A stretch of DNA of 9,596 nucleotides, taken from the IMG/VR virus record IMGVR_UViG_2706794686_000013; one strand, 5' to 3'. Both the position numbers and the translations under genes were made by a program. Below are positions 243 to 9,596 of this stretch, piece by piece. Below the pieces are notes generated by a model that ran no database searches, was not told the origin of the DNA, and saw only the letters and a list, made by a program, of their open reading frames with translations. Positions within the stretch are counted from its first letter, which is position 1. Each line of letters begins with the position of its first letter. Source of the stretch: a virus. Taxonomy: Duplodnaviria; Heunggongvirae; Uroviricota; Caudoviricetes.

Positions 243-1325
243 TCATTTTCTCTGGCTGATCTTTACCGGATAACCATCCCGAAGATCAATTAAGTGCTCC
301 GGTTCAGAAGCAAACCATGCATAAGATCCCCACGCCAATTCTGGTATTGCCTTTTTAAAAGGCAGAGCACTTCTGTCCATAAATGCCGTAAGGAATGCAA
401 GATTTTTCTCGCTGAACCCAGCGTCAATAGCCAAATGAGTGAGAGTAACTTTTCGTTCCCTGTTTATAGGCCCATCTGTCGCAACTACTTCAGTGAAAAC
501 TACAAGCATGTCCGAACCCGTTCGGTCCTCTCCCAAATCAATCAAAATAATATCTGGAAGTGCTTTTGAGGCATCAATATTCAGCCCCAATGCTTTTGCC
601 AATACATCATCCTGAGCAACAACTTTATTCCCGGATTCAGACAACCAGAGCACAGTTGGATTCTTAAGAAAATTAGGAGCAAAAACTTCGATGACGGCCT
701 TAGCTATTGTACTTGACGGGCCCGGAGCTAAAGTTCTCTTCTCTCCATTTGGGAAAGTGACGACTACGGCATCAGCAGCAATCACTGCCCCTGATTTCAA
801 TAAACGCAACCTAGCAAGAGCGGCTTTGTTCAAATGATTTTCTTGCCAGGAACTTATTGCACTCAGCAGCGAATCTCCTTCAAGCCCGGCATCAAAGAGT
901 GCTGCAAAAGAGCGATTCAAACTGTAACGAGGACGAGAGGATGTGGTGGGTATACCTTTACGCTCAACAATTGCATTGCAAGGTATTAGGCCATTTTTTA
1001 TAGTTTCATCACGTATTGGCTCACGCGTATTTTCCGCATACCATGCATCAGCAGGCCTTATCTTTTGTTTAGAGAAAGTCATCTTTACCCAGCTTTCTCT
1101 GGACGCATCATCAGTAAGAGCAGCCTGCGAATCTCCCATACTTACAACCTGGCTGGGCCTTATCCATCGCCCCAGCCCCTCAACCGCACCAGCATAAAAC
1201 ATGACAAAAATTGTTTTTGCAGCTATTTCCCGAATTAAATATCCACGATTCTCAGTCCCTTCAGGGAAAATTAATTGTAATCTTTCCCGGATAACATTCA
1301 ATGGGGGAACAACAGGCAGATTCAT
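243..1325 (-). CDS. Putative restriction endonuclease partner of the adjacent methyltransferase (type II R-M R subunit, inferred from context)
   Basis: 360-aa ORF whose ATG overlaps the stop of the upstream methyltransferase by 4 nt (ATGA at 1322..1325), so translationally coupled. GGAG lies about 10 nt upstream of the ATG. No catalytic motif confidently identified by eye (possible hhhExK-like strand at NAIVERK); assignment is by genomic context and size only. Confidence 0.45.
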   Translation of the reverse strand: MNLPVVPPLNVIRERLQLIFPEGTENRGYLIREIAAKTIFVMFYAGAVEGLGRWIRPSQVVSMGDSQAALTDDASRESWVKMTFSKQKIRPADAWYAENTREPIRDETIKNGLIPCNAIVERKGIPTTSSRPRYSLNRSFAALFDAGLEGDSLLSAISSWQENHLNKAALARLRLLKSGAVIAADAVVVTFPNGEKRTLAPGPSSTIAKAVIEVFAPNFLKNPTVLWLSESGNKVVAQDDVLAKALGLNIDASKALPDIILIDLGEDRTGSDMLVVFTEVVATDGPINRERKVTLTHLAIDAGFSEKNLAFLTAFMDRSALPFKKAIPELAWGSYAWFASEPEHLIDLRDGYPVKISQRK

Positions 1326-3154
1326 GCAATCATCACTCCATAGAAACCAGCGATAGTTCTCTCAATAATCCGTCTGTGGACGCCAGCATCAATTAACGAT
1401 TGAATCTCCATCACCTGCTCCAGAGAAGGCAACGGGATTGAATTCAATTCATAGGCCGAAACAGCAACACTTCCGCTTATACACCTGAACGCCCGATCGA
1501 CAACATGCGAATTAAGTAGCATATCAATAACATCAGGGCGAACCGCAGAGAACAATCCGTTTGAATATACAATATTAATATGGTTTTCAACTACTACGCC
1601 ACCAGTTTCATCTATAAATCCCTGAGGTAAAATTGCCGCTAAAATCCTTCTGTCCTGTTCCTTCGATGTTGTCCGCTGAACAAGCACACATTCAGATTTT
1701 GTCACAAGGAAACCCTGTTGTGGGGTTATATCGATATAGGGAACATGATTTTTTCTGTCTGCACTAAAACGAAAACCAGCTGAAGTTATTGATTCCGCCC
1801 AGACTAATGGGTAGCTATTTTTTCCTTTCGTCGTACGCAACTGCGACTTAAATCGATTCCAGACTAACTGACCTGTAGAGACTGAGTATCCCAGATCAGC
1901 TAAACGCGTAGACATCTGTTTTAATACATTAAGAAAACAGGCATCATCTTTAACGCGTGGCAAAAGCCACGTTGCTCCACCTTTTTCTATATCAACATTA
2001 CCTATTTTCTCAATTTTTGCTTTGTTCAACCCCTTAGGGACAAGTGAGGATACCTGGGCCCGAACTTTATGTTCTCCCGCCTTGAATGCTGTCAACATTG
2101 TTTCCTGGAGAACATCGTCAAAGACCCCATCCCTGTCAGTGACGAAATCAAGGGCATACGGAGTAGTTTTTTCGGTCAAAAGGGTTCGCAGCGCGGTGAA
2201 ATACTGCCCACCAAGAAAAGAAGTTGGCGTAAGAAATGCAATAACTCCTGTTTTCTCTTTAACCATGCGAACAGCTAAGTCGGTGAACAATCCATATAGA
2301 TTTGCATGACCAAATAACGAACGAGAATATTTTTCTCTCGTTTTAATATCGAGAGTGACACGTCCGTAAGGCGGATTCCCTACCACAAGATCATAACCAG
2401 AAAATTTATCTTGCTGAAGCGCATCAGCAACAATAATTGTATCTTCAGGCAATCTACGTTTTACCTTTACACATAGTGGCATTAGTACAGATTCGAGCAA
2501 TACCAAACTCATCCAAGCCGCAAATGGATCGATCTCTATCCCCTTTAAACGACGACTGATTCTCCTCAACATCCATTCAGGGGAAGACCCCTTGTCTTTT
2601 TTTAACATTCGAATGGCTACTGGTGCCAAAAATGCACCGCCACCACACGCAGGATCAATAACCGATGCATGAGAAAAATCAACACCAGACTTTTCAGCCA
2701 GGTCCAAGAGACGCGCTACCAAAGGTGGGGGGGTATAGTAAGCCCCCAATTCCGAACGGTAAGCGGATGGCAGCATTACCGTATAAATTGACCCAATCAG
2801 ATATCCAGCGTCCTCCGCCGGAAATTGAGCAATAAGCTCACCTGTTCGTTCAGCGAGCTCGCGTGCATCACATGGAATGTCTTCTATGTAAACAGTGTGC
2901 GGTACTGCCCTCATTTTAATGCTGCTTTTTTGCTTTTTTGCAAGGGTATCCCAATATGCAGCTACGATGCTGAAGCAGTATGAGCGGGCATGCATCAACC
3001 TTGACTGCCCGGTTTTGTAATTGCCCGCATAACCTTTGGCCATGGCTTTACAAGTTTGATATCTTTCCAGATTAGAAAACTCATTATCTGTAAAAAAATC
3101 AAAATGTTGCACATTCATAATGTAAAATCCTAATGTATCAAACATGCGGGCCAT
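1322..3154 (-). CDS. N6-adenine-specific DNA methyltransferase, gamma-class motif order
   Basis: 610-aa ORF with AdoMet-binding motif I (IDPACGGGAFL) followed by catalytic motif IV (VVGNPPYG) and a motif X-like GAYYTPP upstream, then about 330 aa C-terminal to NPPY consistent with a target recognition domain. Start is ambiguous between ATG 3154, ATG 3145 and ATG about 3118 (the last has AGGA upstream). Confidence 0.85.
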   Translation of the reverse strand: MARMFDTLGFYIMNVQHFDFFTDNEFSNLERYQTCKAMAKGYAGNYKTGQSRLMHARSYCFSIVAAYWDTLAKKQKSSIKMRAVPHTVYIEDIPCDARELAERTGELIAQFPAEDAGYLIGSIYTVMLPSAYRSELGAYYTPPPLVARLLDLAEKSGVDFSHASVIDPACGGGAFLAPVAIRMLKKDKGSSPEWMLRRISRRLKGIEIDPFAAWMSLVLLESVLMPLCVKVKRRLPEDTIIVADALQQDKFSGYDLVVGNPPYGRVTLDIKTREKYSRSLFGHANLYGLFTDLAVRMVKEKTGVIAFLTPTSFLGGQYFTALRTLLTEKTTPYALDFVTDRDGVFDDVLQETMLTAFKAGEHKVRAQVSSLVPKGLNKAKIEKIGNVDIEKGGATWLLPRVKDDACFLNVLKQMSTRLADLGYSVSTGQLVWNRFKSQLRTTKGKNSYPLVWAESITSAGFRFSADRKNHVPYIDITPQQGFLVTKSECVLVQRTTSKEQDRRILAAILPQGFIDETGGVVVENHINIVYSNGLFSAVRPDVIDMLLNSHVVDRAFRCISGSVAVSAYELNSIPLPSLEQVMEIQSLIDAGVHRRIIERTIAGFYGVMIA

Positions 3155-4967: not shown

Positions 4968-5465
4968 TTACTTCACAACTCCCGGAAAGCTGACATTTGA
5001 ACGCCAGCTATCCCAGTTAAACGTCACCCACCGACAACCGTTCATGGTCATGCGGTCCATAATCCTCTCACCAAGAAGCGTGCTCATTGCGGCATGATTC
5101 AGGTTTGTTAACATCCCGACACTGCACAGTGATGCTGTCCGGCGATCAATTATCTGGTGCAATACCACCTGCTCGTTTTTCGTCTCCCGCTGAATGCCTA
5201 TTTCATCCAGGACCAGCAAATCAACCCCGCAAAGCTCCTGTAAAAATTTTTCACCGGATTTGCCGTTGTCGTAGCTGTCATGCAACACGCTCATGACATC
5301 AGACTCGGTGACGATAATCACGCTGCGCCCCTTCGCCATCAGCCGGTTACCCATCGCCGCTGCAAGGTGATTTTTCCCGGTGCCGGTTTTACCGCTGAAC
5401 ACAAAATTCGTGCACCCGGTCATCAGTTCGTCAGCTATGGATTTGGCCTGGCTCAGCGCGTATTT
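4968..5465 (-). CDS. DnaC-like helicase loader / phage replication protein P-analogue (AAA+ ATPase), 5' end lost in N-run
   Basis: Visible portion reads ...KYALSQAKSIADELMTGCTNFVFSGKTGTGKNHLAAAMGNRL..., with the Walker A SGKTGTGKNHLAAA that closely matches E. coli DnaC (SGKPGTGKNHLAAA), and a Walker B-like LLVLDEIG. The frame is open right up to the N-run at 5466, so the true start is inside the unresolved block. Confidence 0.85.
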   Translation of the reverse strand, partial: KYALSQAKSIADELMTGCTNFVFSGKTGTGKNHLAAAMGNRLMAKGRSVIIVTESDVMSVLHDSYDNGKSGEKFLQELCGVDLLVLDEIGIQRETKNEQVVLHQIIDRRTASLCSVGMLTNLNHAAMSTLLGERIMDRMTMNGCRWVTFNWDSWRSNVSFPGVVK

Positions 5466-5686
5466 NNNNNNNNNNNNNNNNNNNNNNNNNNNNNNNNNNN
5501 NNNNNNNNNNNNNNNNNNNNNNNNNNNNNNNNNNNNNNNNNNNNNNNNNNNNNNNNNNNNNNNNNNNNNNNNNNNNNNNNNNNNNNNNNNNNNNNNNNNN
5601 NNNNNNNNNNNNNNNNNNNNNNNNNNNNNNNNNNNNNNNNNNNNNNNNNNNNNNNNNNNNNNNNNNNNNNNNNNNNNNNNNNNNNN
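5466..5686. other. Unresolved/masked bases (221 N)
   Basis: Continuous run of n. Covers the 3' end of the O-like gene and the 5' end of the DnaC-like gene; ORF-track residues shown as X are not real. Confidence 1.
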
Positions 5687-6673
5687 TACCGGGAGCAACC
5701 AGGGGTTTTCAAAATTCCGGTCCGGCCCAAAAAACGTCGTCGCTCGCTGAACAAATTCCGTTCCCGCTTTCCCGGTCGCCGCCAGGTATCTCGCGTAACG
5801 CCTCACACCATCCAGCATGGTCTCTGGTGGCACCCCCTCGCGCAATCTGGCCTTCCAGGCACTGAATGCGGATTTCTTCGGGTTTGCCCCGGCACGCAAC
5901 GGGTATTCCCGCCAGACCTGTTCGAACACATCCGGATAATCCACTCGTCCCACAGGCTGCCCGGTGTTTTCCGGGGCTACCCGATCGGCTTCCCGCTGAA
6001 TGGCGGAATCGGCTTCAGGCTGCTGCAGTTGGAGTGATTGCTCCGGCCTTGCGGTCATCACCTGCTGCACAGCGCCCGAATCGGCTTTCAGCGCATACGC
6101 TGAATCGGCTTCCGGTGTCGAGCCTGCTGGCTGACCAGGATTGACGGTCTGAACATCCCCTGCCTGGTTCGTGGCGTTTTTTACGCCATGGACCATAGTG
6201 TTTTGATCTTCTTTATCTGTATCTTTATCTGTATCTGTCGTGACTCGTCGTGACATGTGCGTGACATTTCGTGACGCGCCGTGACAATCGCCATTTTGTT
6301 CCCGCTTTCTTTCCCTCTCTCGCTGCGCCCTCTTGCGCTCTGCAGGAGATTTTGCGGTTTGCGAAATATTGCCGTTGTCCTCTTTAAGCACCTGGCGTTT
6401 TTCCCATCCAGTGATTAAATCACCATCAAGTACCCGCCCCTGCATCGTCTGCAAAATTGAATCAATTACCTCTTCTGTCACGTCGAGCGCACTTGCCAAA
6501 TCTTCTGTCGTGACATCAATGTGACCTCGCGTGACATTTCGTGACGCGCTCACCAGGAGGTGGATATACACTGCCATCACTGTTGCAATTGGCTGCCCTG
6601 ACACCCTGGCAATTGTTCGCCACTTAGGGTCATTTGGCATGTCATGCCATAATCTGAGCCAGGCGTTAGCCAT
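5687..6673 (-). CDS. Phage replication initiation protein (lambda O-like role), 3' end lost in N-run
   Basis: ATG at 6671..6673 (MANAWLRLWHDMPNDPKWRTIARVSGQ...) with SD agaggtg upstream; the track start at 6679 is GTG. Sits immediately upstream of the DnaC-like gene and contains the iteron arrays within its coding sequence, as lambda O does. C-terminal region visible to 5687 (...FENPWLLPV) then runs into N. Confidence 0.6.
6211..6234 (+). repeat. Perfect 12-bp tandem duplication (ctttatctgtat x2) in an AT-rich stretch adjoining iteron array A
   Basis: 6211..6222 and 6223..6234 are identical; encodes the TDKDTDKD stretch of the initiator on the opposite strand. Confidence 0.8.
6240..6285. repeat. 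Iteron-like array A: five helically phased GTGAC(A) repeats
   Basis: GTGAC begins at 6240, 6250, 6261, 6271 and 6281 (spacing 10, 11, 10, 10 bp). Contains the 21-mer gcgtgacatttcgtgacgcgc at 6259..6279. Confidence 0.75.
6510..6549. repeat. Iteron-like array B: four helically phased GTGAC repeats plus one inverted copy upstream
   Basis: GTGAC begins at 6510, 6521, 6531 and 6541 (spacing 11, 10, 10 bp); inverted GTCAC at 6477..6481. The exact 21-mer gcgtgacatttcgtgacgcgc recurs at 6529..6549, 270 bp from the copy in array A. Confidence 0.75.
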
Positions 6674-6744
6674 ACTCACCTCTTCTGATACCGAATCTTT
6701 TTACTCACGAGTTGCCGGGAGCGATTCGATATGGCTATTGTCAG

Positions 6745-7170
6745 TCAATGTACTGCCACAGCATTTCCTGCCGGGCCACCACGGTTCATCTGATTGAAAC
6801 CGGCGATTGCCACTGCGACAAAATCATCAGCGTCTCTCACCAGTCGTTCATGCGTCTCCACCAGTTCCCGAAAATAAGCTGAACTGTGGCTGCGCATTCG
6901 AGCCACCAGCGGAGGTGGCATTGCCCTTTCGATCGCAGGTAACAACGCCTGAATTTTTTCAACAGCGTCAGGGGTGTCTTTATCCAGCCAACGGAAAATC
7001 TTTTGGGTGTTGAGATAAAGCGTGTTGTGCTTGCTGTCGTTATGCAGAACCGGAAACGTCATTCCCAGTTCGAAATAAACCCTGGTTATTTCAGCTGCCG
7101 GAACTTTTTCACCGTCCGGATGCGCCCAGGCTTTCATCGCCATGCGGATGTGTTCATGCTTGATTTTCAT
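6745..7170 (-). CDS. ydaT: YdaT-like protein (CII-like regulator position in a Rac-type immunity region)
   Basis: 141-aa ORF starting MKIKHEHIRMAMKAWAHPDGEK..., which I associate with the YdaT family of Rac-like prophages (recall, unverified). Sits between the cro-like gene and the replication initiator. Its ATG overlaps the cro-like stop (ATGA at 7167..7170); GGGGG SD upstream. Confidence 0.5.
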   Translation of the reverse strand: MKIKHEHIRMAMKAWAHPDGEKVPAAEITRVYFELGMTFPVLHNDSKHNTLYLNTQKIFRWLDKDTPDAVEKIQALLPAIERAMPPPLVARMRSHSSAYFRELVETHERLVRDADDFVAVAIAGFNQMNRGGPAGNAVAVH

Positions 7171-7420
7171 GAATCAACCCCCGCCGATGGTTGTGTGTTA
7201 GCCTGAAACTCAGCAGGCAAGCCGTCAGTTGGGTTGGGGTAGGTTTTACTGTCAATCTCATGTGGGGTCACCACCCATCCCGTTGCTTCACACCAACGTA
7301 ATATTTTTTCTCCTGTAAGTTTTGCACGCCCCGTTATAACGTGGCTGACCATCCCTTGGGATGCGCCAACAATCTCAGCAAATGAACTCTGGGTTATATG
7401 AAAATGATGCAAATATTCTC
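7167..7420 (-). CDS. Cro/YdaS-like HTH regulator, 5' end lost in N-run
   Basis: Visible C-terminal 83 aa: EYLHHFHITQSSFAEIVGASQGMVSHVITGRAKLTGEKILRWCEATGWVVTPHEIDSK... The helix-turn-helix (SSFAEIVGAS-QGMVSHV) is typical of Cro/XRE. No in-frame ATG before the N-run, so the start is in the masked block. First gene of the leftward operon. Confidence 0.6.
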
Positions 7421-7717
7421 NNNNNNNNNNNNNNNNNNNNNNNNNNNNNNNNNNNNNNNNNNNNNNNNNNNNNNNNNNNNNNNNNNNNNNNNNNNNNNNN
7501 NNNNNNNNNNNNNNNNNNNNNNNNNNNNNNNNNNNNNNNNNNNNNNNNNNNNNNNNNNNNNNNNNNNNNNNNNNNNNNNNNNNNNNNNNNNNNNNNNNNN
7601 NNNNNNNNNNNNNNNNNNNNNNNNNNNNNNNNNNNNNNNNNNNNNNNNNNNNNNNNNNNNNNNNNNNNNNNNNNNNNNNNNNNNNNNNNNNNNNNNNNNN
7701 NNNNNNNNNNNNNNNNN
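7421..7717. other. Unresolved/masked bases (297 N)
   Basis: Continuous run of n covering the 5' ends of both divergent regulator genes and the whole intergenic operator/promoter region between them. Confidence 1.
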
Positions 7718-8090
7718 ACAAGGGGCGGTAAGTCACTACCTAAATGGTCAAACCCCACTAAACCTTGAGGCTGTTCTAAAGTTTGCTGGCTTACTGAAAG
7801 TTCCCCCTGAGTCAATCAGGCCAGACATGGTAGATTTGCTGCAAATTGCAAGGATGTATTGTCGAGAACCACAGCAAGATAACATAGTCGCATTACCAGC
7901 AGACACAGAACAAACAGAGGATGAACTACCGTTTGCCGTAGAGCCGATGGAACGAGATTTAATCCATACGTTCAGAGCTTTTCCGAAAGAAGATCAAGAA
8001 CACATGCTTCAGGAGATGAAAGATAAAAAAGAATCAATGGATCGTACGGTTGCGCGGTGGTTAGCTGCACAAAAAGGCCGTCGCGCCTAA
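7718..8090 (+). CDS. HTH repressor-like regulator (CI/RacR-position; possible PaaR-type regulator of the downstream toxin-antitoxin pair), 5' end lost in N-run
   Basis: Visible 123 aa begin mid-HTH (QGAVSHYLNGQTPLNLEAVLKFAGLLKVPPE...), a recognition-helix signature of XRE-family repressors. Divergent to the cro-like gene. Stop at 8088..8090, only 19 nt before the antitoxin start. No S24 peptidase-like C-terminal domain seen. Confidence 0.6.
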
Positions 8091-8109
8091 ATCAGAGGAG
8101 ATATGTAAA

Positions 8110-8304
8110 ATGAGTACAGTCCTTTCCCCAATGGTTTCAGAATTTGAGACAGTTGAGCAAGAAAATAGTTACAACGAATGGCTGCGGGCCAAAGTAGCAG
8201 CAAGCCTCGCGGATCCCCGCCCGGCGATTCCGCATGATGAGGTAATGGCGGAAATGGAACAAATTATTGCCCAAATTGCTGCTGCAACTCACAGAGGTGA
8301 ATAA
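8110..8304 (+). CDS. paaA: Type II antitoxin, ParE-associated (PaaA-like)
   Basis: 64-aa ORF with GAGGAG SD 9 nt upstream. Its stop overlaps the toxin ATG (TAATG at 8302..8306), the classic antitoxin-toxin arrangement. Sequence (SPMVSEFETVEQENSYNEWLRAKVAASLADPRPAIPHDEV) resembles my recollection of the PaaA2 antitoxin of E. coli O157 prophages (unverified). Confidence 0.65.
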   Translation: MSTVLSPMVSEFETVEQENSYNEWLRAKVAASLADPRPAIPHDEVMAEMEQIIAQIAAATHRGE

Positions 8305-8594
8305 TGTTACCCGTTTTATGGCTACCATCTGCTCGTGATGATTTGCGCCAGATCGTAGCCTACATAGCTAAAGAAAATCCCGCGGCAGCACGCAGAATGA
8401 AAATTCGAATTGAAACATCCGTTTTGCCGCTCACAGAGCATCCTTACCTGTATCCTCCAAGCGAGCGAGTTCTTGGTCTTCGTGAAATTGTAACTCATCC
8501 TAACTACATCATCCTTTACCGAGTAACAGCATCAAGCATAGAAGTAGTAAATATTGTGCATTCTCGAAGACAGTATCCAGGCAAAAACAGTTAA
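8304..8594 (+). CDS. parE: ParE/RelE-family toxin
   Basis: 96-aa ORF (MLPVLWLPSARDDLRQIVAYIAKENPAAARRMKIRIE...LGLREIVTHPNYIILYRVTASSIEVVNIVHSRRQYP) showing the conserved ParE/RelE pattern: W.P.A..DL..I..YI near the N-terminus and GLRE...nYiIlYRV...ieVvnIvH near the C-terminus. Confidence 0.85.
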   Translation: MLPVLWLPSARDDLRQIVAYIAKENPAAARRMKIRIETSVLPLTEHPYLYPPSERVLGLREIVTHPNYIILYRVTASSIEVVNIVHSRRQYPGKNS

Positions 8595-8610
8595 TTATTC
8601 CCGCCGACAG

Positions 8611-8634
8611 AACCACCTTAGGGTGGTTTTTTCT
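8611..8634 (+). terminator. Rho-independent terminator downstream of the toxin gene
   Basis: Stem aaccacc (8611..8617), loop ttag, stem ggtggtt (8622..8628), followed by a T-run (ttttttctt), 17 nt after the parE stop. Confidence 0.55.
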
Positions 8635-8647
8635 TGCCCCAACAAAA

Positions 8648-8695
8648 AACAATAGCGATGCTATTTACATCAAAAAAAAATAATGATGCTATTGT
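8648..8695. promoter_or_regulatory. Palindromic / direct-repeat element flanking an A9 tract (candidate operator-promoter for the downstream small genes)
   Basis: aacaatagc (8648..8656) is the exact reverse complement of gctattgtt (8687..8695); gatgctatt occurs twice in direct orientation either side of aaaaaaaaa; tttaca is -35-like. No convincing -10 hexamer at canonical spacing. Confidence 0.3.
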
Positions 8696-8874
8696 TTCAG
8701 GCGTCAACCCACCCCGCCCCACAGAATGCAGGGCAATACTTCGAGTTACCAGACAGTGGTCAGGGGTTAAGTAGCCAGCCCGAGGCGTAAGAACATGACG
8801 GCAGGGTTCAATCTTTAACTATGCAGCAGGTTTTTTGTTCCGCCACCCCGGCGTTAAGGGGAAATGAGGTCAGC

Positions 8875-9536: not shown

Positions 9537-9596
9537 GGTAATGACTCCAACTTATTGATAGTGTTTTATGTTCAGATAATGCCCGATGACTTTGTC
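9537..9596 (-). mobile_element. IS1 insertion sequence, terminal 60 bp (IRR end); element body continues beyond the window end
   Basis: 9537..9596 reads ggtaatgactccaacttattgatagtgttttatgttcagataatgcccgatgactttgtc, the reverse complement of the IS1 right end (...gacaaagtcatcgggcattatctgaacataaaacactatcaataagttggagtcattacc). Same orientation as the copy at 1..90. Confidence 0.9.
9552..9596 (-). CDS. insB: IS1 transposase InsB, C-terminal end (partial; rest beyond window)
   Basis: Minus-strand translation gives ...DKVIGHYLNIKHYQ followed by stop (TAA at 9552..9554), matching the known InsB C-terminus. Confidence 0.8.
   Translation of the reverse strand, partial: DKVIGHYLNIKHYQ

Follow-up and report, generated by a model that had tools for sequence, protein, structure and literature searches.

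The window, that is, the whole stretch of 9,596 nucleotides analysed here, is a cryptic prophage remnant of Shigella sonnei, lambda-like and decayed. In S. sonnei this remnant measures 9.4 kb, is bounded by directly repeated IS1 copies and lies at the chromosomal position of Qin; it has no integrase, lysis or structural genes, and retains a PstI/BsuBI-type restriction-modification system at its other end. The locus of interest comprises, in this order, an OR region, a regulator gene, a PaaA antitoxin gene, a translationally coupled ParE toxin gene, a terminator and an OL/PL-like region, with the three genes in the same orientation. The features of the window are as follows.

6745..7170, minus strand: YdaT-family gene, 141 aa (Pfam YdaT_toxin PF06254, E = 5.1e-9)
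7160..7177, no strand: YdaT operator TTGATTTTCATGAATCAA at the ydaS/ydaT junction, PRE-like promoter region (exact match to TTGATTN6AATCAA)
7167..7420, minus strand: visible part of a cro-like (YdaS-type) HTH gene, first 10 nt masked (list of open reading frames)
7421..7717, no strand: N mask hiding the 5′ end of the cro-like gene, a 111-bp intergenic region with OR, PR and PRM, and nt 1-128 of the regulator gene
7718..8090, plus strand: visible 3′ part of the regulator gene, 123 codons and stop, frame from 7719 (translation, Pfam HTH_3)
8094..8100, plus strand: Shine-Dalgarno AGAGGAG of the antitoxin gene, 9 nt before ATG 8110 (read directly)
8110..8304, plus strand: PaaA-family antitoxin, 64 aa (Pfam, PDB, identity to PaaA2)
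8304..8594, plus strand: ParE-family toxin, 96 aa (Pfam, PDB, identity to ParE2)
8609..8636, plus strand: intrinsic terminator, 9-bp stem, 4-nt loop and T-run (fold; scan match in the E. coli locus L001)
8651..8695, plus strand: OL/PL-like region (pattern search; promoter scan in L001)
8651-8665, plus strand: predicted OL1, AATAGCGATGCTATT (pattern search)
8679-8693, plus strand: predicted OL2, AATAATGATGCTATT (pattern search)
8664-8669 and 8690-8695, plus strand: putative PL -35 TTTACA and -10 TATTGT, overlapped by OL1/OL2

Reading frames, junctions and encoded proteins

When the window was aligned to S. sonnei genomes with 100% identity on either flank, the N masks proved not to have their true lengths: 249 real bases lie behind the 297 N at 7421-7717, and 333 behind a run of 221 N. 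An apparent excess of about 50 bp over the E. coli FDAARGOS_944 counterpart, which an additional operator or a larger regulator might have explained, was therefore dismissed. Likewise, the listed open reading frames of 230 and 408 aa, both of which read through N masks, are artefacts. The masked bases were recovered from S. sonnei (L015:3166-3414, minus strand) and from the near-identical E. coli FDAARGOS_944 (L001:8322-8570). Recovery of the 5′ end of the regulator gene, as the earlier note had proposed, gave a full-length protein of 166 aa in loci that match the window fully or at 98.7% identity, while gene callers place its start so as to yield 166, 161 or 145 aa. The complete cro-like gene encodes 87 aa (L001:8068-8331) and matches Pfam HTH_3 weakly (E = 4e-4).

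As the earlier note had described, the regulator gene is divergent to the cro-like gene, which extends on the minus strand from 7167 into the mask and is accompanied on that strand by the YdaT-family gene. In E. coli relatives the latter bears the annotation 'toxin YdaT family protein', and its role is that of a CII analogue (PMC8630535, PMC9986795). The sequence TTGATTN6AATCAA is the footprinted OM operator of CP-933P and has the same position there as in the window (PMC9986795); our motif search found one exact match in the window against 0.06 expected by chance.

The regulator frame emerges from the mask at 7718 and ends with TAA 8088-8090. The 19 nt up to the antitoxin ATG at 8110 (8091-8109) contain a ribosome-binding site as their sole content, and the antitoxin stop and the toxin start overlap by one base (TAA 8302-8304, ATG 8304-8306; TAATG). 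None of the three reading frames is interrupted in the window, and the exact proteins were found on at least 1000 contigs each. The toxin gene is followed by a hairpin at 8609-8630 with a T-run (-15.1 kcal/mol, z = -3.55; none of 200 shuffles was as good); a simple terminator scan passed over this hairpin by one T, and found it in L001. These readings agree with the junctions and the terminator that had been noticed before. According to the earlier note, a separate promoter and terminator between regulator and antitoxin would have spoken against a single unit; our scan of the plus strand from 7718 to 8110 revealed neither promoter-like nor terminator-like sites. Co-transcription of the three genes from a promoter 5′ of the regulator is thus compatible with the sequence. 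An Rfam search of the whole window at a permissive threshold gave no match.

The antitoxin matched Pfam PaaA2 PF21217 (E = 3e-23) and PaaA2 in the PDB (chain 3zbe_A, E = 1.4e-23). PaaA2 was the sole Pfam family matched, with no DNA-binding family and no ParD/RHH match. The toxin matched Pfam ParE_toxin PF05016 (E = 1.8e-17) and, over residues 1-93, ParE2 in the PDB (chain 5cw7_B, E = 6.7e-37). By these family matches, the antitoxin and toxin frames are not chance open reading frames. The antitoxin has 67% identity to PaaA2 and the toxin 67% to ParE2; with their counterparts in the other O157:H7 paralogue the figures are 78% and 83%. Together with a regulator C-terminal segment of 44 aa that is 52% identical to that of PaaR2 (E = 4e-15), these identities bear out the three-component PaaR-PaaA-ParE-type organisation suggested previously.

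The regulator itself begins with an N-terminal HTH like that of lambda CI, continues with a linker and ends in a C-terminal segment of the PaaR/DicA type. It matched HTH_3 (E = 5.9e-9) and otherwise only HTH_31 in Pfam, and its N-terminal HTH matched the lambda CI N-terminal domain in the PDB (1lmb, E = 1.3e-9). Its likeness to PaaR2 is limited to the C-terminal segment, the last ~45 residues; the DNA-binding domain is of another, lambda-CI-like kind. An S24 peptidase domain was not found by Pfam, and the PDB matches to CI end at about residue 90; since this peptidase/dimerisation domain is lacking, RecA-mediated induction would not be expected. The C-terminal likeness to DicA is weaker than that to PaaR2, with 29% pairwise identity over 51 aa. 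The NCBIfam DicA profile NF007257 was matched over positions 74-130 only (E = 7.6e-8) and at 32.2 bits against a curated cut-off of 101, which places the regulator outside the full-length DicA subfamily. Public annotation calls the regulator merely a 'helix-turn-helix domain-containing protein' and the antitoxin 'RelB family'; more precise names are possible for both.

Predicted operators and promoters of the immunity region

The predicted operator is a 15-bp palindrome, AATAGCnnnGCTATT, which occurs both at OR and at OL/PL 3′ of the toxin gene. OR is masked in the window, and its operators were taken from the sequences of other genomes, both S. sonnei and E. coli. In L001, OR contains three copies (AATAGCACTGTTATT, AATAGCGATGCTATT and ATTAGCAATCTTATT), and a 16-mer is identical in OR2 and OL1. 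The operators at OR and OL overlap promoter hexamers. Upstream of the regulator lies a PRM-like element, TTCAAA-17-TAGAAT, of which the -10 TAGAAT ends 7 nt before the regulator ATG, and there is no Shine-Dalgarno sequence. The spacer of the putative PL is 17 nt long in L001, where the promoter scan gave a match, 18-20 nt in S. sonnei and, because of a run of 9 A, 20 nt in the window. Promoter-like matches were no commoner than in shuffled sequence, so that these elements draw their weight solely from where they lie with respect to the operators.

The S. sonnei form of OR2 has one or two changes (AATAGTGATACTATT). The left-arm change was present in every S. sonnei copy compared, and most also had the right-arm change, which is its mirror image and hence restores the palindrome rather than degrading it. 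The OR2 changes and the lengthened PL spacer imply that the S. sonnei switch may be partly degenerate.

The same OR/OL search recovered the published GTTTAGT-type operators in a PaaR2-type locus (L005), and in two loci with further N-terminal domain types (L003 and L002) it detected other sequences common to OR and OL. Operators that recur, as predicted here, between the divergent genes and a second time at a PL-like promoter beyond the toxin-antitoxin genes are a feature of the CP-933P-type immunity region. Both these repeats and the divergence from the cro-like/YdaT pair support the view that the regulator occupies the CI position. A conserved block of 105 nt after PL showed no stable fold (z = +1.08), giving no support for a structured RNA.

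Relation to published immunity regions

The nearest described system is paaR2-paaA2-parE2 of prophage CP-933P (Sp12) in E. coli O157:H7, in which PaaR2 is the CI analogue, YdaS acts as Cro and YdaT as CII (Hallez 2010; Jurenas 2021, PMC8630535). There, the repressor promoter drives the toxin-antitoxin genes, the mRNA is leaderless, PL and PRE promoters have been reported, and the locus is bistable and addictive (PMC8630535); the evidence came from 5′ RACE, footprints, reporter fusions, and assays of bistability and plasmid stabilisation (PMC8630535, PMC9986795). For the O157:H7 homologue, the part of Hallez 2010 relayed in PMC4803016 describes an operon transcribed from the paaR promoter, repression by PaaR, partial repression by the PaaA-ParE complex alone, and no cross-neutralisation. 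Publications on E. coli O157:H7 thus already cover the architecture, the addiction phenotype and the link between repressor promoter and toxin-antitoxin genes, and the best-ranked literature matches included no description of the S. sonnei locus.

CP-933P and the S. sonnei locus have in common the gene order, orientation and position within the immunity region, the divergent YdaS/YdaT pair with its YdaT operator, a regulator without an S24 autocleavage domain, and OL/PL-like operators 3′ of the toxin with DUF1391/dicB genes further on. They differ in the regulator, which has 166 aa in S. sonnei versus 123 aa in PaaR2 with 28% identity overall and unrelated N-terminal domains, in the operators (AATAGCnnnGCTATT versus the GTTTAGTAA type of CP-933P) and in the C-terminal 18 residues of the antitoxin. 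Moreover, the S. sonnei prophage is an IS1-bounded remnant, unlike CP-933P. Judged by its lambda-CI-like DNA-binding domain and predicted operators, both of which differ from those of PaaR2, the S. sonnei locus is a heteroimmune allele of the CP-933P-type system. The second O157:H7 paralogue (locus L003), which we take to be paaR1-paaA1-parE1, has the toxin-antitoxin genes closer to those of S. sonnei (the 78% and 83% given above) and has the architecture and the regulator C-terminal segment in common with it; its regulator is 39% identical overall with another N-terminal domain, and its operators are built on AACAGTTTTTTATTGT.

Lambda cI-rexA-rexB resembles the S. sonnei locus in the recognisably similar N-terminal domain of its repressor, in the accessory genes between the repressor gene and OL/PL, in operators that overlap promoters and in the leaderless cI gene, whose -10 lies right before the start codon much as the -10-like element of the S. 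sonnei regulator does. In contrast, lambda CI has the S24 peptidase/dimerisation domain that the S. sonnei regulator lacks, the accessory genes are rexAB rather than a toxin-antitoxin pair, and lambda Cro and CII stand in place of the unrelated YdaS and YdaT. DicA of the E. coli K-12 prophage Qin has the same position, divergent from dicC and upstream of ydfA/dicB, and a similar C-terminal segment, but its N-terminal domain is different and, unlike in S. sonnei, no toxin-antitoxin genes lie between dicA and ydfA. Canonical parDE of the RK2 type likewise encodes a ParE-fold toxin behind an overlapping antitoxin gene; however, ParD has a ribbon-helix-helix DNA-binding domain, whereas the S. sonnei antitoxin has none and regulation is by a separate repressor.

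When the heteroimmune loci were compared, identity in the cro-like gene, OR and the regulator N-terminal domain fell to 30-45%, while the regulator C-terminal segment and the toxin-antitoxin genes showed 75-85%, and OL/PL was lower again. A paaA-parE homologue is present in 842 of 5426 complete E. coli genomes, and in every locus inspected a regulator with the C-terminal segment lies upstream of it; a DNA search with the segment alone was too insensitive, detecting 139 genomes versus the 842 for the toxin-antitoxin genes. The idea that the segment is confined to toxin-antitoxin-linked regulators was rejected, as DicA of Qin has it without such genes. By these comparisons the regulator C-terminal segment and the toxin-antitoxin genes are a conserved unit, around which DNA-binding domain, cro-like gene and operators are swapped.

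As a further allele of a system already described, the S. sonnei cassette carries little weight for new biology. It adds a third immunity type to the PaaR-PaaA-ParE family, set apart by predicted operators of its own and a DNA-binding domain resembling that of lambda CI, and an allele that is fixed in Shigella sonnei within an IS1-bounded remnant.

Proposed working of the locus

We consider it likely, at a probability of roughly 0.85, that regulator, antitoxin and toxin form a PaaR-PaaA-ParE-type module inside the immunity region of a lambdoid S. sonnei prophage that has become defective. By homology with CP-933P, the repressor would bind the predicted operators and keep off both the rightward promoter of the cro-like/YdaT genes and the leftward PL, while the PRM-like promoter would drive regulator, antitoxin and toxin, probably from a leaderless mRNA. 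The cro-like protein would compete for the same operators, creating a bistable switch, and YdaT at TTGATTN6AATCAA may provide a second, PRE-like entry into the operon. PaaA would be the labile partner that neutralises ParE through direct binding, and ParE a gyrase-poison-type, SOS-inducing toxin. With PaaA labile, loss of the locus would free ParE, so that a cell which deletes or replaces the immunity region would pay a penalty. The earlier suggestion that toxin-antitoxin expression is wired to the repressor promoter thus gains support by homology, the wiring having been demonstrated experimentally for the CP-933P homologue (PMC8630535). In the CP-933P system, ParE2 activity was undetected in either transcriptional state and plasmid stabilisation, a sign of addiction, is the sole demonstrated phenotype of PaaA2-ParE2 (PMC8630535); any other physiological role would be hypothetical.

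Conceivably, antitoxin and toxin could be an autonomous type II module of two genes, driven from a promoter of their own, the regulator having no part in their expression. In CP-933P reporter cells the pair is indeed transcribed appreciably in both switch states (PMC8630535), the partial repression by PaaA-ParE alone would suit such a module, and DicA of Qin, with the C-terminal segment and no toxin-antitoxin genes, would make the pair an insertion. Yet the 19-nt gap with nothing but a ribosome-binding site, the plus strand free of promoter-like and terminator-like sites, a PaaA devoid of a DNA-binding domain and the co-transcription of the homologue from the paaR promoter, as relayed in PMC4803016, render this autonomy highly improbable. 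A decaying relic, with genes intact only through the youth of a clonal lineage and a dead switch, is also unlikely, if less so. It would account for the stripped, IS1-bracketed remnant, the mutated OR2 and lengthened PL spacer, and, in some assemblies, a regulator called at reduced length or interrupted genes next to it. Against it stand the three intact reading frames and their exact proteins on so many contigs, the restored OR2 palindrome in most S. sonnei copies compared, and the resistance to loss that is in the nature of an addictive module.

Prophage toxin-antitoxin systems often defend against phages. The cassette might serve mainly abortive infection or superinfection exclusion like rexAB, and addiction only secondarily. 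It occupies the position equivalent to that of rexAB behind lambda cI (PMC9986795), and the restriction-modification system is kept in the same remnant. However, PADLOC models matched none of regulator, antitoxin and toxin, and the literature examined yielded no phage-defence phenotype for PaaA2-ParE2 beside plasmid stabilisation; a mainly defensive role is accordingly quite improbable, ranking between the relic and the autonomous module.

Returning to the addictive PaaR-PaaA-ParE-type module, we tentatively propose, while regarding it as rather doubtful, that the C-terminal segment and paaA-parE move as one cassette among heteroimmune lambdoid prophages with a breakpoint inside the repressor gene, and that the cassette and the PstI-type restriction-modification system prevent IS1-IS1 deletion of the 9.4-kb S. 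sonnei remnant. If the cassette is mobile in this way, any new set of DNA-binding domain and operators would inherit an addiction module. The survival of two potentially addictive modules in one remnant agrees with the view, already in print, that the cassette makes the immunity region stable.

Organisation of the three-gene unit

Searches with the 64-aa protein returned PF21217 (Pfam, E = 3e-23) and PaaA2 (PDB 3zbe, E = 1.4e-23), while the 96-aa protein matched PF05016 (E = 1.8e-17) and ParE2 (5cw7_B, E = 6.7e-37). By these similarities the two are a PaaA antitoxin and a ParE toxin, as the earlier note had proposed. Upon re-reading of the sequence, the note's coordinates and junctions for the repressor-like regulator, antitoxin and toxin proved correct. 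The regulator frame exits the N mask at 7718, with codons in frame from 7719 and a stop at 8088-8090, and the 19-nt gap that follows contains a good ribosome-binding site, AGAGGAG, 9 nt ahead of the start codon (ATG, 8110).

8110-8304, + strand, antitoxin ORF (64 aa; RefSeq name 'RelB family antitoxin', gene relB)
8304-8594, + strand, toxin ORF (96 aa), overlapping the antitoxin ORF in TAATG
8609-8630, terminator hairpin and T-run after the toxin (fold -15.1 kcal/mol, beating 200 of 200 shuffles)

A simple terminator scan missed the window hairpin by one T and detected the same hairpin in a near-identical E. coli locus. On the + strand of 7718-8110, scanning gave no promoter-like or terminator-like site separating regulator from antitoxin, which fits the single unit suggested earlier.

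BLAST and exact-protein matching show the window to be a segment of the Shigella sonnei chromosome: many genomes of S. sonnei, CP000038 among them, match it at 100% or 99.9% identity. Each exact protein occurred on at least 1000 contigs, nearly all S. sonnei, and the same allele was present in 2 of 5426 complete E. coli genomes, at 98.7% identity. The N masks are not length-true: the one at 7421-7717 has 297 N for 249 bases, and the one at 5466-5686 has 221 N for 333. ORFs listed through them, such as 5453-6679 and 7398-8090, have artificial lengths. We recovered the missing 5' end of the regulator gene by reading the bases behind the 7421-7717 mask in E. coli FDAARGOS_944 and in S. sonnei loci whose two flanks are identical to those of the mask. 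The complete regulator has 166 aa and the N-terminus MKRKSLSDTDLNAARRLKEIW.

Regulator residues 2-82 were similar to the lambda CI N-terminal domain (PDB 1lmb, E = 1.3e-9), and residues 106-162 to the C-terminal part of DicA (NCBIfam NF007257, E = 7.6e-8, under the family cut-off; 29% identity to DicA over 51 aa). Since a Pfam search found no S24 peptidase domain in the regulator, we infer that it is not SOS-inducible via RecA-mediated autocleavage, and likewise PaaR2 of the O157:H7 cryptic prophage CP-933P lacks such induction. A cro-like HTH gene neighbours the regulator on the minus strand, along with a YdaT-family gene, and a DUF1391 (ydfA-like) gene lies downstream of the toxin, joined in relatives by dicB, exonuclease and integrase genes; the neighbourhood is a lambdoid immunity region. 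The RefSeq name 'toxin YdaT family protein' is at odds with the published evidence for YdaT as a CII-like transcription factor.

Predicted operators and promoters

Pattern searching of the intergenic region between the cro-like and regulator genes (OR) in E. coli FDAARGOS_944 returned a 15-bp palindrome three times: AATAGCACTGTTATT, AATAGCGATGCTATT and ATTAGCAATCTTATT. The window has two further copies of the palindrome downstream of the toxin terminator, and OR2 and OL1 have an identical 16-mer in common.

8651-8665, predicted OL1 operator, AATAGCGATGCTATT
8679-8693, predicted OL2 operator, AATAATGATGCTATT

The predicted operators overlap promoter hexamers in lambda-like fashion. A PRM-like TTCAAA-17-TAGAAT has its -35 abutting OR2 and its spacer and -10 overlapping OR3; a PR-like TTTACT-17-TATTAA on the opposite strand, read from the recovered region, overlaps OR2 and OR1; and PL-like hexamers TTTACA and TATTGT overlap OL1 and OL2. 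As the PRM-like -10 stops 7 nt short of the regulator's start codon and there is no Shine-Dalgarno, the regulator mRNA may be leaderless. Furthermore, the YdaT operator TTGATTN6AATCAA occurs in one exact copy at 7160-7177, at the ydaS/ydaT junction (0.06 expected by chance), the same position as in CP-933P (PMC9986795). This operator is read from the sequence, as are the family assignments and the three-gene unit with OR on one side and OL/PL on the other.

Applied to the PaaR2-type locus, the OR/OL comparison returned the published GTTTAGT-type operators, which validates the approach. For two further types of regulator N-terminal domain (L003, the second O157:H7 paralogue, and L002), it gave different shared OR/OL sequences, which argues for heteroimmunity.

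The OR2 left arm carried a C-to-T change in every S. sonnei copy examined (e.g. L019:3320-3345). In most copies a mirror-image G-to-A in the right arm keeps the palindrome, giving AATAGTGATACTATT versus AATAGCGATGCTATT in E. coli; a few strains (L007, L013, L015) had the left-arm change only. The A-run at 8670-8679 in the predicted PL spacer varied from 6 to 9 A among strains, so that the spacer ranges from 17 nt in E. coli FDAARGOS_944 to 20 nt in the window; either slipped-strand variation or sequencing error in the homopolymer could explain this.

Relation to known PaaR-PaaA-ParE loci

The proteins of the E. coli O111 locus L005 correspond to the published set: its antitoxin agrees with the PDB sequence of PaaA2 and its toxin with that of ParE2, while the regulator begins MQKKE, as sequenced for PaaR2. 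The comparison with PaaR2-PaaA2-ParE2 proposed in the earlier note gave the values below; the last 44 residues of the regulator were 52% identical to the PaaR2 C-terminus (E = 4e-15).

Identity of window proteins to related loci (regulator, overall identity)
L005 (PaaR2-PaaA2-ParE2 type): antitoxin 67%, toxin 67%, regulator 28%
L003 (second O157:H7 paralogue): antitoxin 78%, toxin 83%, regulator 39%

Among heteroimmune loci, sliding identity was 30-45% over the cro-like gene, intergenic region and regulator N-terminal domain and linker, returned to 75-85% from ~7935-7990 (the regulator C-terminal segment) through both toxin-antitoxin genes, dropped again at the terminator and OL/PL, and exceeded 90% in a non-coding block from ~8705. 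This profile shows a mosaic in the aligned sequences. The block (8705-8810, ~105 nt, PL to the DUF1391 gene) is >90% conserved across loci with otherwise unrelated immunity regions. It had no Rfam match, no stable fold (z = +1.08) and no counterpart after dicA in K-12 Qin; it could serve in antitermination or regulation. In E. coli RM10466 (L023:1826-2677), the antitoxin-toxin pair follows two tandem regulator genes (123 aa, 138 aa), an arrangement that recombination between immunity regions seems to have produced.

According to the summary in PMC4803016, Hallez et al. 2010 reported that a promoter located upstream of paaR drives co-transcription of paaR-paaA-parE, that full repression requires PaaR, and that the two O157:H7 paralogues show no cross-neutralisation. 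In CP-933P, Jurenas et al. 2021 described PaaR2, from a leaderless mRNA, as the CI analogue, PaaR2 and YdaS binding overlapping operators at PRM/PR and PL, and YdaT activating a PRE-like promoter; the immunity locus was bistable, ParE2 activity was detected in neither state, and the region stabilised a mini-F plasmid (PMC8630535). There, paaA2-parE2 replaces rexAB (PMC9986795). The suggestion that a CI-position regulator wires toxin-antitoxin expression to the repressor promoter was therefore right, but already published. By homology, the regulator would bind AATAGCnnnGCTATT sites and shut off PR and PL, while PRM would transcribe regulator, antitoxin and toxin; the cro-like protein would compete with the regulator, and a second promoter would depend on YdaT. 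PaaA would neutralise ParE, with post-segregational or post-deletion killing as the expected outcome.

It is unlikely that the toxin-antitoxin genes are an autonomous module driven by a promoter of their own, because only 19 nt separate regulator and antitoxin and the antitoxin has no DNA-binding domain. The three genes may have a rex-like defence role, but this is unsupported, PADLOC giving no match for any of their proteins. It is possible that the immunity switch has decayed in S. sonnei, given the altered OR2 and a PL spacer of 18-20 nt caused by the variable A-run; all three reading frames, however, are intact.

The window cassette is a heteroimmune allele of the known, experimentally characterised PaaR-PaaA-ParE kind. 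Mildly new are the conserved unit of regulator C-terminal segment plus toxin-antitoxin genes, with a breakpoint inside the repressor gene, and its retention by S. sonnei in an IS1-bracketed remnant alongside a restriction-modification system; beyond these points, the cassette will not surprise specialists.

The remnant and its restriction-modification genes

Both window termini, 1-91 and 9537-9596, are ends of IS1. The two IS1 copies have the same orientation in S. sonnei genomes (L016/L017), so the 9.4-kb prophage remnant is bracketed by direct repeats; it is flanked by ydfI-like genes on one side and ynfE/F/G-like genes on the other, the place that Qin occupies in K-12. At the far end from the toxin-antitoxin cassette (243-3154) lie two restriction-modification genes, identified with Pfam and PADLOC, which are potentially a second addictive module:

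243-1325, - strand, PstI/BsuBI-family type II restriction enzyme (360 aa; PADLOC E = 2.8e-128)
1322-3154, - strand, Eco57I/N6-type methyltransferase (610 aa; PADLOC E = 1.8e-300)

Some assemblies of S. sonnei have a split methyltransferase gene beside an intact nuclease gene; the split may be an assembly error.
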